Source: Candidatus Micrarchaeia archaeon (GTDB lineage Archaea; Micrarchaeota; Micrarchaeia; Micrarchaeales; CABMGC01). Taken from it: 64,000 nt of DNA. Shown here piece after piece: positions 5,308 to 63,437 of this stretch. The position numbers and the translations under genes were made by a program. The notes under the pieces were generated by a model, which made no database searches, had not been told where the DNA came from, and saw only the letters and a program-made list of their open reading frames with translations. Each line of letters opens with the position of its first letter. The first letter of the stretch is position 1. The stretch lies in the NCBI GenBank assembly GCA_049976845.1, contig JBMFHL010000001.1, forward strand, positions 32,001-96,000. Direction: 5' to 3'.

Positions 5308-6264
5308 TTAGTCCCTTATCCCATCTGGTGTTATTTTTATAATGCATTCTCCTTCTGGCATGTTTGGAGAGTCAACAAGCCTTATTATCCTCTTATCCTC
5401 CTTTCCTTTTCTTATGTATAGCCTTGTGGTAGCTGCATGGGCTATTACATTGCCACCGACGGGGGTTGTAGGGTCTCCAAAAAGTATTGCAGGGTTATCC
5501 ATTACTTGATTAGTTATGTAAACAGCAAGGCTATGCTTATCTGCAATGCTCTGCAATTTGTGCAGATGTACATTTAACTTCTGCTGGCGCTCGCCTAGTG
5601 CTCCTCTCCCGATGAATTCTGAACGGAATAAAGCCATGAGCGAATCCACTATTATGAGCTTTATATTTTTTTCAGTTATGAGCTTGTCTGCACGCTCTAT
5701 TGTGAGTATCTGCTGCTCTGTTGTAGAAATGCGCACTGTAAAGATATTTTCTAATACTTTGCTAGGATCTAGACCAAGGGCCTTTGCTATGCTCTCTATT
5801 CTTTCTGGCCTAAAAGTGCCTTCGGTATCTAAGAATAATACCCCTCCCTCAAGCCCCCCCTTACTGAGTGGAAGCTGGACATTAACTGCCAACTGGAAGC
5901 CTATCTGACTCTTCCCAGCAGCATATCTACCATAAATTTCTGTGATGCCATTGGTTTCTATACCTCCACCGAGAAGTTCGTCAAATCCTTTCACACCTGT
6001 AGTTATCCTGCCCAATGCCTTTCTTTTCTCGTATACTGTAGTGGCTGTTTCGTATTCTACAGTTGTAGCCTGCTTCGCAGCATCAACAGCCTTCTTTGCT
6101 GCATCTACGCTTATACCTACAAGCTCGGAAAGATCGTGTGGGGCAGAAGTAGCAACCTTCTCTATCGTATCTATGCCTGCTTCCCTGAGTTTTTCTGCAG
6201 TTGTAGGCCCTATTCCTGGAAGGTCTTCTAGATCTTTGATACTCTTTTCTTTGTCTTTAGCCAT
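5308..6264 (-). CDS. radA: DNA recombinase RadA
   Basis: HhH N-terminus (LEDLPGIG), ITEIYGRYAAGKSQ, DTEGTFRPER, VDSL, GRGALGERQ, TNQV, RLVDSP. Confidence 0.95.
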   Translation of the reverse strand: MAKDKEKSIKDLEDLPGIGPTTAEKLREAGIDTIEKVATSAPHDLSELVGISVDAAKKAVDAAKQATTVEYETATTVYEKRKALGRITTGVKGFDELLGGGIETNGITEIYGRYAAGKSQIGFQLAVNVQLPLSKGGLEGGVLFLDTEGTFRPERIESIAKALGLDPSKVLENIFTVRISTTEQQILTIERADKLITEKNIKLIIVDSLMALFRSEFIGRGALGERQQKLNVHLHKLQSIADKHSLAVYITNQVMDNPAILFGDPTTPVGGNVIAHAATTRLYIRKGKEDKRIIRLVDSPNMPEGECIIKITPDGIRD

Positions 6265-6316
6265 ATACCCCCAACTCAATTAATTATGGGAAAACAAGAA
6301 ATATAACTCTTTTGAA

Positions 6317-7210
6317 TCAAATCAGAAATGCCTTGGCTTCATTAACAACCTTTTTTGCAGGAAAATTCTTTTTGGAATAGAGGGAATGCCCTGCACCTTT
6401 TATAACTATGACTTTCTTCGTGAATTTGTTTTCCTTAAGTCTAGCCGCAGCCAAGCCGATGCTTATTACTCCTTTCATATACTCATCGTTGGATCCGAAT
6501 ATTGCTATTATTGGAATTTTTATTGATTTGAATTCTGCAAGATCCCGCTTATAATCCAGCAACTTGCCCTCTATACTCTTTTCTTCGGCTGTGCTCAAAA
6601 ATCTCAGAGCTGATATTGGCCATTGGTCTTTTGGAAGCAACTTTTTGGGCATTATTGCATATAAATCTTTACTTACTAGCCTGTTAGCTATCAATATATT
6701 TTTATGAAAATTCTTGTGGGATTTCTGATGATTTTTGATATCATAGTTCCTATCATCTACAGGGCTAAGCAAGACCAATCCTTTTACCATCTTTGCTATT
6801 GGCTTTTTGCTGTTTTTGTAAAGGAAATAAATTGATTTTTGACAACCGGTACTCTTTCCTATCAGTATGACTTTCCTAAATCCTAGCTTTTTGAGAAGGG
6901 AAAGAGCGCCATAGATGTCATATTGGGAATCTTCAAACTGCTCGAATGCGGCTCCGGATAGTATCGAAGCTTTTTTTCCTTCATATCCGAGCTCGTCTGC
7001 AATATGACTACCGCGCTGCTGCATGGCAAAAAAGGCCATACCCTTTGCACAGGCTTCTTTACCCACTGCAAGGATTGATTTTGAGTAGAAATTGCCTCCC
7101 AATCCATGAAGATAGAGCATTGCAGAGCTCGCTGGTTTTTTAGGGGTAAAAAGTATGCCTGCAAGGGCAATGCCATCTCGTGCCTTAAAAAACACAATTT
7201 TTGTATCCAT
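6317..7210 (-). CDS. Alpha/beta hydrolase (DUF1749-like)
   Basis: HGLGGNFY, GKSTGCQK nucleophile elbow, GSNDEY, GAGH. Confidence 0.75.
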   Translation of the reverse strand: MDTKIVFFKARDGIALAGILFTPKKPASSAMLYLHGLGGNFYSKSILAVGKEACAKGMAFFAMQQRGSHIADELGYEGKKASILSGAAFEQFEDSQYDIYGALSLLKKLGFRKVILIGKSTGCQKSIYFLYKNSKKPIAKMVKGLVLLSPVDDRNYDIKNHQKSHKNFHKNILIANRLVSKDLYAIMPKKLLPKDQWPISALRFLSTAEEKSIEGKLLDYKRDLAEFKSIKIPIIAIFGSNDEYMKGVISIGLAAARLKENKFTKKVIVIKGAGHSLYSKKNFPAKKVVNEAKAFLI

Positions 7211-7280
7211 TGAACCACTAATGAATTAGAATGCAGGTTTTTATTTCTTCTTATTATAAAATAAACAGGGAGAGTTTATT

Positions 7281-7360
7281 AAAAAGGAAGAGGCCAGCAC
7301 ATTCGCATGCGCTGGCAAGGCGACCAGTTTTTCCCTTCCTACAGTAGAGAACCCGTAGTA
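7281..7360 (-). ncRNA. Putative orphan structured small RNA or cis-regulatory leader
   Basis: GC-rich island. Minus-strand stems CUACGG/CUGUAG, GGAAGGG/CUCUUCC and GCCAGCGCAU-GCGA-AUGUGCUGGC, followed by UUUUU. TTTAAAAA box ~20-25 nt upstream. Confidence 0.55.
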
Positions 7361-7377
7361 TTATATAATAACTTATA

Positions 7378-7390
7378 TTTTTAAACCTTC
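7378..7390 (-). promoter_or_regulatory. BRE/TATA-like element for the putative sRNA
   Basis: Minus strand GAAGG-TTTAAAAA at archaeal spacing from the structured element. Confidence 0.4.
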
Positions 7391-7442
7391 CTTTTTAGTG
7401 GAATTTTCCAAAAATATGAAATTTAGAAGAGAGAAAGATTGA

Positions 7443-8105
7443 ATGAAAAGCTTCCTTACGCTTGACAAAAAAGGTATCACAGTGGCATTGGTATTTGCAG
7501 TATTTATTGTGCTGCTTGGCAGAGCTGAAGGGCCTTATCTGCTTGCTGTACTTATCTTTTTCTTGATTCTTTCTGCACTAGTAACAAATATTGGCAAAAG
7601 AAGGAAGAAGGCTGTTGGAGTGTATGAAAGAAGCCGAGGATGGAAGAATGTGCTTGCTAATGGCGCAATGCCTGTTTTGATTACGGCTTTTTATTTTTTG
7701 AACAGCTATTGGCATATATTTCCACAGGCAATGCTAATTGTAGGCTATTTGGCAAGTGTTAGCGCCGTAACTGCTGACAAGTTCGCAAGCGAGATAGGGG
7801 TATTGGATGGCAAGCCATTGATATTGGTCACCTTGAAACGGGCAAAGCAAGGCACTTCAGGAGGCGTTTCTACCCTTGGACTTGGAGCAGGTTTGCTGGC
7901 ATCACTCTTAATAGCCTTGACCATTGTTTTCTACACTTTTTCATTTGAGTGGCTTGTAATAGTTATTCTTGCAGGTTTTATAGGGAACATTGCTGATTCT
8001 ATATTTGGATATTTTGAGGAGCAGGGTTTTGGCAGTAAGTTTACCACCAATTTCATCTGCTCCTTTGTTGGATTTTTAGTAGGAATCGCTTTATTTGCAA
8101 TATAG
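7443..8105 (+). CDS. DUF92 (TMEM19/VTE6-like) membrane protein
   Basis: RGWKNVLANG, ADKFASEIG, GTSGGVS.LG, DSIFG, TNF. Confidence 0.85.
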   Translation: MKSFLTLDKKGITVALVFAVFIVLLGRAEGPYLLAVLIFFLILSALVTNIGKRRKKAVGVYERSRGWKNVLANGAMPVLITAFYFLNSYWHIFPQAMLIVGYLASVSAVTADKFASEIGVLDGKPLILVTLKRAKQGTSGGVSTLGLGAGLLASLLIALTIVFYTFSFEWLVIVILAGFIGNIADSIFGYFEEQGFGSKFTTNFICSFVGFLVGIALFAI

Positions 8106-9204: not shown

Positions 9205-9290
9205 TGCGCTAGCCGGGATTTGAACCCGGATTGCGAGCTTATTCCTTGGCTTGGGAAGCTCGTATCTTAACCAGATTGGATCACCAGCGC
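9205..9290 (-). tRNA. tRNA-Gly(CCC) with 12-nt intron at 37/38 (9240-9251)
   Basis: GCGCUGG/CUAGCGC-A acceptor, CGAGC-UUCCCA[intron]A-GCUCG anticodon arm, CCGGG-UUCAAAU-CCCGG T arm. Confidence 0.92.
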
Positions 9291-62675: not shown

Positions 62676-63437
62676 TCATATATAAAAAAATTCCCTTAAA
62701 TTGTCGAGGGTCTTTTCAGCTACGTAATCTACTCCCAAACCTTTTGCATTTGCAACAATGAGTGCAGATTTTTTAACATCTGCAGGGGTTTTCCCTACTA
62801 CTGGCGAGTCTGTTTCAAGCAAAATGCTTTTGAGGCTTAGCGCCTTAATCATCCTATACCTTTTGCTTGACTCTATAGGTGGCACAGAAGCAAAGTAGCC
62901 TAGTCCTTCTATACGCTTTGCATCTACCTCATCACCTTCAAAGAAGTGGAAAAGCACGCGCTTTATACTCATTTCTTCAAGTATGCTAATAGTCTCGTTA
63001 AGTGCACCTCTAGAGTGGACAACCACTGGCACTTCTAGCCTTTCAGCAACTTCAAGCTGCATCTTGAATATTTCTATCTGCTTTTCAATGAGTTTTTCAT
63101 CCTGTGTAATCTTTCTGTCTATACCTATCTCCCCGATTCCTACAATATTTCTGCTGCTTTTTACAAGCCCCTCAAGTTGTGTTTCATCTCCGTATTCGTT
63201 GACAAAATCGGGGCTTATTCCAATGACTCCATAGACATTTGTTCCATTTGCAAGCATTGCTGTCTCTGCATTATCTTTGTTGCTACCTCCTGCCGTTACA
63301 ATAGTGCTAATACCCTCTAATATTGCTGATTCAATCGCTTTTCTAGGGTCTTCGAAAAGGTTTAAATGGCAGTGTGCATCGCCAAACTCTGCTTTTGTTA
63401 ATTGGTTTTGCTCCATGCTGCTGGAGGTTTGGTACAT
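62676..63437 (-). CDS. tatD: TatD-family nuclease
   Basis: DAHCHL, IGEIGID, VVHSR, FHFF, LLETDSP. Confidence 0.9.
   Translation of the reverse strand: MYQTSSSMEQNQLTKAEFGDAHCHLNLFEDPRKAIESAILEGISTIVTAGGSNKDNAETAMLANGTNVYGVIGISPDFVNEYGDETQLEGLVKSSRNIVGIGEIGIDRKITQDEKLIEKQIEIFKMQLEVAERLEVPVVVHSRGALNETISILEEMSIKRVLFHFFEGDEVDAKRIEGLGYFASVPPIESSKRYRMIKALSLKSILLETDSPVVGKTPADVKKSALIVANAKGLGVDYVAEKTLDNLREFFYI

Follow-up and report, generated by a model that had tools for sequence, protein, structure and literature searches.

The window analysed here is a stretch of 64,000 nucleotides (nt) from a 731-kb genome assembly, roughly 90% complete, of a Candidatus Micrarchaeia archaeon (GenBank GCA_049976845.1, contig JBMFHL010000001.1, positions 32,001 to 96,000 of the forward strand). 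Its minus strand harbours an element which we describe in the following as a putative small RNA (sRNA) gene. Upstream of this element lies a divergently oriented gene for a DUF92 membrane protein, and on the same strand it is followed by the genes of an alpha/beta hydrolase (family matches: DUF1749 and Abhydrolase_1) and of RadA (Table 1). Read along the minus strand, the element consists of the box TTTAAAAA, a gap of 20 nt and the sequence CUACGGGUUCUCUACUGUAGGAAGGGAAAAACUGGUCGCCUUGCCAGCGCAUGCGAAUGUGCUGGCCUCUUCCUUUUU, which extends from 7358 to 7281. An earlier note on this DNA had ascribed to the minus strand of the divergent intergenic island two hairpins, an outer stem enclosing the second of them, three G-U pairs, an upstream box and a terminal U-run. 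All of these are indeed present in the sequence, with one G-U pair in each of the three helices.

Table 1. Parts of the putative sRNA gene and genes next to it (positions in the window; 5' and 3' refer to the strand given).
Feature	Position	Strand	Basis
TATA-like box TTTAAAAA with purine-rich bases just upstream that resemble a B recognition element (BRE)	7378..7392 (box 7378-7385)	minus	read from sequence
Presumed transcription start, about 23-25 nt 3' of the TATA-like box	7353..7357	minus	spacing and conservation onset at UACGGG
5' hairpin CUACGG / loop GUUCUCUA / CUGUAG	7339..7358 (7358-7353 pairs with 7344-7339)	minus	RNAfold
Conserved 5' motif ACGGGUUCUCU	within 5' hairpin 7339..7358	minus	alignment
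Candidate second mRNA contact, CUACUGUAGGAAGG against UCACCUCCACAGUAA around the stop codon	7334..7347	minus	frozen synonymous sites and cofolding
Outer stem P1, GGAAGGG/CUCUUCC	7339-7333 with 7292-7286	minus	RNAfold, family comparison
Unpaired, near-invariant loop AACUGGUCGCCUU, 13 nt, putative seed	7317..7329	minus	54-sequence alignment
UGGUCGCCUUGCCAGC, reverse complement of target site GCUGGCAAG(G/A)CGACCA	7311..7326	minus	sequence comparison
P2, 10-bp hairpin GCCAGCGCAU-GCGA-AUGUGCUGGC	7316-7293	minus	RNAfold, covariation
U-run UUUUU, presumed archaeal terminator and 3' end	7285-7281	minus	read from sequence; conservation stops there
DUF92 membrane protein gene	7443-8105	plus	
Alpha/beta hydrolase gene	6317-7210	minus	
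RadA gene	5308-6279	minus	

Promoter-like box and U-run point to an RNA of about 75 to 80 nt which would be transcribed from the minus strand, from about position 7356 to 7281, under an archaeal promoter of its own and with the U-run as its end; the minus-strand RNA proposed by the earlier note is supported to this extent at the level of the sequence. Its start was placed according to the usual archaeal spacing between TATA box and transcription start. Across 57 relatives the promoter block aligns as AAAGnTTTTTAAA, and 50 of 52 distinct sequences from the order, as well as 37 of 42 from other families, have a TATA-like hexamer 40 to 85 nt before the core. Since AT-rich spacers make such hexamers common, we consider the aligned block to be the better evidence. 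A run of at least four T residues occurs 30 to 80 nt after the start of the core in 34/52 relatives from the order and in 30/42 from other families. As the start probably falls inside the 5' strand of the 5' hairpin, the RNA would retain at most four of the six pairs of this hairpin.

The minimum free energy structure which RNAfold predicts for the minus strand is the one drawn in the earlier note (-30.5 kcal/mol, z = -3.36, one of 200 shuffled sequences being as good), while the plus strand reaches -21.6 kcal/mol (z = -1.77, 15 of 200 shuffles as good). The helices were judged one by one in an alignment of 54 out of 57 extracted sequences, from which L006 (identical to L005), L016 (cut by a contig end) and L058 (nearly identical to L054) were omitted; the unpublished genome G050 stands outside this alignment but is counted in the tallies, and G, L, f and g denote our own numbering of genomes, loci, families and genera. 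P2 is paired in 95.5% of the cells, shows compensatory double-sided changes in six of nine pairs and is the only helix retained by RNAalifold (9 pairs). The base of its stem is conserved, its tip and loop are variable. The G-U pairs together with the compensatory changes in P2 fix the strand as minus. P1 is paired in 83.8% of the cells and, among families f1 and f3, closes with G-C in one and with U-A in the other; we regard its support as moderate because both strands are low-complexity purine or pyrimidine runs. For the 5' hairpin 76.4% of the cells are paired, including some exchanges of A-U for G-C, and a similar value (78.6%) is obtained for an alternative hairpin, UUCU/AGGA, which is mutually exclusive with P1 and may reflect either a switch or chance. 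The competing hairpin CUGGU/GCCAG, which the earlier note had thought possible, can be drawn but is not maintained, as CUGGU stays static where the main hairpin covaries (GCCUGC, GCCCGG). Other families substitute the 5' domain, for instance by a small covarying hairpin CUGCC-GAAA-GGCAG, and keep the 5' motif RCGNNUUCUSU, which recurs in all subtypes, the loop with P2, and the tail CCUNNUUYU.

A peculiarity is seen in families f10, f11 and f17 (L106, L141, L144, L145, L146, L148, L149 and L150), where the gene continues past the first U-rich tract with GGCGACCAGUUC, a sequence which pairs in cis with the loop over 9 to 12 bp and is followed by a second U-run. Such an "anti-seed" may constitute a built-in mask of the seed or may reflect the existence of a long and a short isoform.

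In its own genome the element is present as a single copy. Of 60 relatives from three families, 57 give a single strong match (E <= 4e-4) when 131 nt are used as BLASTN query, and the alignment profile runs from the promoter block over the conservation onset at UACGGG and the invariant CUGGUCG(C/U)CUUGCC to a variable hairpin tip and loop, a pyrimidine stretch and the T-run. Of 151 genomes sampled across the phylum, the covariance model derived from the alignment detects the gene in 138, which are distributed over 17 of 21 families and nearly always contain one copy; at E <= 0.01 the model gave no match in genus g2 and in families f12, f15, f18 and f20, which is to be read as non-detection, not as absence. 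The element is thus no orphan, as the earlier note had called it, and the search for homologues and covariation in Micrarchaeota which that note had suggested yields widespread homologues and a covarying P2. The 13-mer loop is identical in 43/51 distinct sequences of the order and in 33/48 from other families. Beyond the sampled genomes, a scan with the exact pattern returned at least 120 stretches; the 80 listed comprise 48 from archaea and 32 from GC-rich bacteria. The element ranks among the most conserved non-coding sequences of the phylum. Two copies of the gene, on different contigs or at different places, are found in G032 (L039 and L040; 77.5 and 75.3 bits) and also in G099.

What the earlier note had missed is an antisense match: the invariant loop is complementary to the 3' end of a conserved mRNA whose gene is not linked to the element. 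BLASTN reveals 16-nt perfect matches at a second locus in at least 15 genomes, and this locus is the 3' end of a gene which encodes a protein of 172 amino acids, with a coiled coil at its N-terminus and a winged helix at its C-terminus. In the present genome this gene is situated on another contig (G000:C6:28807-29322, minus strand); within the order the protein is found in 60 of 61 genomes, and it ends with ...QLGHKVYYKFDAGK(A/T)TNTLIVSPPQ*. Its family matches are weak (ArsR/SmtB-type helix-turn-helix, E 0.008; BlaI-type repressor, 2e-5, for a far homologue), and sequence search found no solved structural relative of it. UGGUCGCCUUGCCAGC is the exact reverse complement of the sense-strand sequence GCU GGC AAG GCG ACC A; in the own genome the site contains ACG, which leads to one C.A mismatch. 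Between the convergent stop codons of the winged-helix gene and of an aIF2-gamma-like GTPase gene there are two tandem GC-rich hairpins (AAGGCCUGCUUGGGGGAAGCAGGCCUUA; L024 1215-1300, on G000:C6), which are likely bidirectional 3'-end structures.

The target site is constrained at the level of its nucleotides. Among 30 orthologues the codons facing the sRNA are virtually frozen (GAT 28/29, GCT 28/28, GGC 29/30, AAG 30/30, (G/A)CG 30/30, ACC 21/26), and equally conserved residues nearby drift, with six codons in a leucine column and GGC 13, GGT 12, GGG 4 and GGA 1 in a glycine column. Over the 75 usable columns of the 30 orthologues the normalised codon entropy mostly amounts to 0.7-1.0; at D-A-G-K-A/T-T it drops to 0.22, 0, 0.11, 0, 0 and 0.35. 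The complementarity is conserved as well: when the sRNA is compared with the mRNA of its own genome in 51 genomes, an unbroken 17-bp duplex is found in 30 and one of 14-16 bp in three, and six show only short runs (3-9 bp). Most variants of the site preserve pairing through wobble (ACC>ACU, ACC>AUC, ACC>GCC, GGC>GGU, AAG>AGG), even where they change the amino acid (Thr>Ile, Thr>Ala). On the other side, the sRNA variant GUCGUCUU (C>U) of G041 and G054 stands opposite the A of ACG in the mRNAs of just these genomes (AAG ACG). In the decayed sites of G042 and G058 several synonymous positions have changed together, which is the pattern expected if a constraint at the nucleotide level had been lifted.

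A second frozen island lies immediately before the stop codon (TCA 25/27, CCT 21/28, CCA 26/30, CAG 22/24) and faces CUGU(A/G)GGAAGG of the sRNA. Cofolding of the two RNAs predicts this second contact, which in the own genome comprises only 6 + 2 pairs and is weak. The energy gained by cofolding amounts to -11.8 kcal/mol in the own genome, mismatch included, and to -15.5 to -23.1 kcal/mol in four others. When targets in the own genome are ranked, the winged-helix site comes third after the gene's own antisense strand, C6:10652 and C3:16357 scoring better. Antisense scans with AAGGCGACCAG in the own genome and in five complete genomes missed the target, except for G023 363935-363945, because the site ends with ...ACCA(A/U/C). 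In a cultivated member of the group (NZ_CP060530.1; L172, G175) the two partners match perfectly over 16 nt; the sRNA is located at about 63086-63167, the target gene extends over 353679-354197, and the site within it lies at about 353705-353719. A term search of the paper on a cultivated relative found none of the non-coding RNA terms.

Outside the order, a homologue of the winged-helix protein was found in 10/10 far genomes tried, where it ends right after the wing and lacks the C-terminal extension. A scan of the 151 genomes for CTGGCAAGGCGACCA with at most one mismatch returned a second site in 66 of them (counted from the table), the reversed-pattern control giving seven hits in total. 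Thirteen second sites from other families were fetched; ten adjoin the homologue, and in nine of these ten, as well as in G126, the site is placed at the stop codon or just behind it. All located far-family sites (f4, f6, f7, f8, f13 and f14) are on the sense strand, and the cognate duplexes run over 14-18 bp. In four genomes of f7 the stop codon UGA is directly followed by UGCUGGCAAGGCGACCAUA; G157 (f19) and G072 (f4) show 12 Watson-Crick pairs, placed at the stop codon or 7 nt behind it, and two f11 genomes have a shifted site which pairs with GUUGAACUGG. In G063 (f6), with ...UUGGUCGCCUCGCCAGC in the sRNA and CUGGCGAGGCGACCAA in the site, both partners have changed together at two positions (CCUC in the sRNA against CGAGG in the site, and U as first base of the sRNA against A in the site). 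A 9-mer scan with GGCGACCAG in 26 genomes of another order gave hits close to the control level. The simplest history would be an old contact between the sRNA and a 3' untranslated region (UTR), through which the reading frame was extended in the ancestor of the order, adding 15 residues whose codons would now be held by the sRNA.

Taking these observations together, we consider it probable that the element encodes a trans-acting antisense sRNA which pairs with the 3' end of the winged-helix mRNA. A transcription unit of its own, unlinked to the target, as demanded of a trans-encoded sRNA, is recognisable at the sequence level, and conserved complementarity, nucleotide constraint and compensatory change are all found. 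We infer that the RNA is made and that the two RNAs meet in the cell. The RNA would fold into the closing stem P1 and the 10-bp hairpin P2 and thereby display the 13 unpaired nt of the loop between them. As a free seed, this loop would nucleate the interaction and, together with the 5' strand of P2, pair in trans with a site of 15-17 nt in the mRNA, opening the base of P2 by strand displacement. The site would comprise the last codons of the message in this order and lie at or just behind its stop codon elsewhere. The predicted outcome is a post-transcriptional control of the winged-helix protein, exerted through the stability of the mRNA 3' end or through events at the stop codon. In analogy to RNA-257 of Sulfolobus we favour a destabilisation of the target mRNA, although the direction of the effect is a guess.

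Several observations weigh against this interpretation. In 12 of the 51 genomes, the own one included, the duplex consists of 10 + 6 bp around a central C.A mismatch. The site has decayed and the sRNA has nevertheless been kept in G042, G056, G057 and G058 and largely in G044; since the sRNA outlives the decayed site, this target is not what keeps it there. Likewise, loop and 5' strand of P2 are equally conserved in families where no site was found, and no clear site was present in 5/9 further far genomes (G110, G071, G153, G093, G111); f9, f10 and f17 are families for which the searches found no site. Three of the thirteen second sites fetched, all from f9, fall into unrelated coding regions. 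Only about two compensatory events are independent, one in the f6 lineage (G063) and one in genus g35 (G041/G054), as related genomes do not count separately. The 5' motif, the pyrimidine 3' tail and the anti-seed of f10/f11 stand outside the pairing model, and the sRNA probably has further partners, RNA or protein. A DNA motif shared by both loci would produce the same complementarity, against which the wobble pattern and the fixed strand alone argue. Finally, among the sequencing runs searched, no RNA run is listed as holding the sequence.

Some of these points would be accommodated by a housekeeping ribonucleoprotein RNA whose loop, 5' motif and U-rich tail bind a conserved protein, for example an Sm-like one, and whose complementarity to the mRNA is a secondary add-on by which one gene can be tuned by an abundant RNA. 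The undiminished conservation of the loop and hairpin base in families without a found site, the persistence of the RNA where the site has decayed, and the idle role of RCGNNUUCUSU and of CCUNNUUYU in the pairing model all agree with it, and a near-universal single-copy presence is typical of such RNAs. We nevertheless judge it unlikely: a protein partner was not identified, no neighbouring gene is consistent, the genome has its SRP (signal recognition particle) RNA, RNase P RNA and 5S rRNA at other loci, and neither a kink-turn (K-turn) nor an ACA box nor C/D boxes are present. Moreover, the frozen mRNA site is left unexplained, so that the pairing has to be assumed anyway. Frozen synonymous sites would follow equally from a DNA operator which is shared by the sRNA gene and the end of the winged-helix gene and serves as the binding site of a DNA-binding protein, which might be the winged-helix protein itself. 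The fold of this protein is indeed of a DNA-binding type, the motif has a partial dyad symmetry (CTGG-N8-CCAG), and the sRNA locus of f10/f11 holds two inverted copies of it about 50 bp apart. A symmetrical site, however, would not be required to lie on one strand, whereas the sense strand is used in all ten located far-family sites and in the whole order. The variants tolerated are transitions which keep G-U pairing, and equally easy ones (GCU>GCC, AAG>AAA, GCG>GCA) are seen only where the whole site has decayed. In addition, the motif is located about 25-45 nt inside the transcribed region of the sRNA gene, an unusual place for an operator in archaea, and we regard this explanation as very improbable.

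As an alternative to an sRNA, the earlier note had suggested a switch-like leader of the hydrolase gene. More generally, a cis-acting leader of whichever gene lies downstream on the same strand, or an attenuator resembling a riboswitch, would account for the U-run after the structure and for the drawable alternative hairpin, and radA does follow on the same strand in 16 of 19 related loci of the order, in 17 of which DUF92 is the divergent upstream neighbour. The hydrolase, in contrast, is inserted before radA in just two of the 19 (the own genome and one congener), and radA carries a BRE/TATA-like box of its own 100-150 nt behind the U-run. In 14 loci of other families the downstream gene differs (rtcA in five, rhomboid in four, two of each checked by Pfam, otherwise other genes), each with promoter-like boxes, and DUF92 is nearby in two and radA in none. 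From lineage to lineage the neighbours are thus exchanged, but the U-run and the aligned promoter block persist. Together with an alternative hairpin that does not covary, one copy per genome and no match to an Rfam riboswitch, this makes a leader extremely improbable. RtcA, the RNA 3'-terminal phosphate cyclase, is encoded directly downstream on the same strand in three other families (L282, L283, L284, L287, L288). RtcA and rhomboid were rejected as functional partners, as tblastn of the own genome found neither. Hardly to be credited, in our view, is a relic or end of a mobile element, be it a miniature inverted-repeat transposable element (MITE) or an insertion sequence (IS), or a diverged member of a known RNA family. 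Four related genomes do contain the core-like UGGCCGCCUUGCCAGG several times, at a distance of about 30 nt before a transposase-like frame. The element itself is single-copy here and in nearly all other genomes and holds a stable position within the order; a known family is opposed by the missing Rfam match and by the lack of an ARAGORN tRNA. The dispersed repeat of these four genomes (L377-L383; G028, G029, G038, G020) reaches up to six copies per genome and combines a hairpin with UGGCCGCCUUGCCAGG before the transposase-like frame (MKIEKLKNKIPEVW...); it may be an IS leader which mimics the sRNA seed or is ancestral to it.

Against Rfam 15, cmscan found no match for the element or for 35 relatives, in line with the earlier note's view of an undescribed sRNA. 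At E <= 10 the region 7000-7700 of the window gave five chance hits, whose scores of 12.7-20.9 bits compare with thresholds of 50-80; at gathering thresholds only three tRNAs, all elsewhere, are found in the whole window, and the loci of the 35 relatives, which cover all subtypes, gave nothing relevant at E <= 5. The earlier note had already set aside a tRNA, a C/D guide and a hammerhead, and rightly so. A tRNA or a split tRNA half was rejected on account of negative results with ARAGORN (also with introns allowed) and with the Rfam tRNA model, and of a variable hairpin loop which is no T-loop. Archaeal H/ACA guides are characterised by a pseudouridylation pocket with two sides, by a K-turn or K-loop at the apex and, 3' of the lower stem, by an ACA box. 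The RNA considered here has an internal loop on one side only, with 13-16 nt facing 0-1 nt; its apical loops (GCGA, GAAA, UUCG) are short and differ between relatives, and UUU instead of ACA follows the lower stem. The C (RUGAUGA) and D (CUGA) boxes which form the K-turn of a box C/D guide occur neither in the sequence nor in the alignment consensus. An identity as SRP RNA, RNase P RNA or 5S rRNA was dismissed in view of the genomic copies at C9:26611-26889, C3:9340-9577 and C10:13379-13492, respectively. As a guide against 16S rRNA, 5S rRNA, SRP RNA, RNase P RNA or the predicted tRNAs, the loop, the 5' end and the tail form duplexes no better than those of shuffled probes, and with regard to a T-box-like pairing no tRNA 3' end fits once the discriminator base is placed. 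K-turn, triple helix, small open reading frame and DNA sites of dif or ORB type were dropped on inspection by eye; a conserved peptide is ruled out because the hairpin lengths differ by non-multiples of three.

Further RNA genes were noticed in the course of these searches. In the window, 9205-9290 (minus strand) scores 46.4 bits with the Rfam tRNA model and is missed by ARAGORN at default settings; with introns allowed, ARAGORN reports a tRNA-Gly(CCC) with a 12-nt intron at a non-canonical position. The SRP RNA (G000:C9:26611-26889; L068 1501-1779) scores 63.9 bits against an Rfam threshold of 96.5. Where the archaeal model has about 40 positions and one hairpin, following the 5' strand of helix 5, this RNA has only about 8 nt, which looks like a loss of helix 6, the arm that binds SRP19. 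The 16S rRNA gene (G000:C20:9513-11499) measures 1987 nt against 1478 model positions and thus contains an insertion or intron of about 500 nt; a 23S rRNA gene was not found in this assembly.

Trans-acting antisense sRNAs as such are a known kind of regulator; what appears notable in the present case, as far as sequences can tell, is the phylum-deep conservation of both partners and the constraint on a protein sequence. The duplex formed by RNA-257 of Sulfolobus solfataricus is reported to speed mRNA decay in vitro, the 3' UTR transfers the effect to a reporter, and the RNA is called transposon-derived (PMC3674436). Like RNA-257, the Micrarchaeota sRNA, known here from sequence, would be an archaeal trans-acting antisense RNA which is complementary over an extended stretch to the 3' end of a single mRNA. 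To the transposon origin ascribed to RNA-257 corresponds the core-like sequence beside transposase-like genes in four relatives. While RNA-257 is multi-copy, confined to the species level and directed against a phosphate-transporter mRNA, the Micrarchaeota sRNA is single-copy and, together with its target site, phylum-wide. Unlike in RNA-257, the putative seed is exposed by an internal loop which two helices flank, and one order has the site within the coding sequence. Archaeal sRNAs which bind 3' UTRs are also known from Pyrobaculum species and from Haloferax volcanii (PMC4152357); the present RNA resembles them in its predicted pairing with the 3' part of a message and not with the ribosome-binding site, but they are conserved at the genus level and the Micrarchaeota sRNA at the level of the phylum. 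Because archaeal sRNAs pairing with 3' UTRs are known and the RNA-257 duplex speeds decay, we favour a control linked to the mRNA 3' end or to termination. Some archaeal sRNAs which bind 3' UTRs are encoded in cis opposite their target; the sRNA described here differs from these in being encoded on another contig than its target. Bacterial Hfq-dependent sRNAs possess a promoter of their own, carry an invariant seed in single-stranded form and end with a hairpin and a U-rich tail, an anatomy shared by the Micrarchaeota sRNA. Bacterial sRNAs mostly act at translation starts and are rarely conserved beyond a family or order. A literature search, judged by titles or the beginnings of abstracts, found no paper on such an RNA in Micrarchaeota.

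A more far-reaching proposal, which we hold to be distinctly unlikely, sees in the sRNA and the winged-helix protein the two components of an ancient autoregulatory ribonucleoprotein circuit common to the whole phylum. Either this protein or some other conserved factor would bind the invariant 5' motif and the pyrimidine tail. The loop would guide the complex to the region around the stop codon in the message for the winged-helix protein, so that translation termination would be coupled to 3'-end decay; the anti-seed of f10/f11 and the transposase-linked core-like copies would be further inputs into such a circuit.

Hardly any regulatory RNAs are known from DPANN archaea. In evolution, base-pairing sRNAs are as a rule replaced quickly, and a pair of sRNA and site that extends through a whole phylum of genome-reduced symbionts would point to a core circuit devoted to one DNA-binding protein. 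It would also represent a contact between two RNAs which shapes a protein, as the seed apparently freezes codons and steers which amino-acid changes are tolerated. With both partners present in a cultivated member, the proposed pairing is directly testable.

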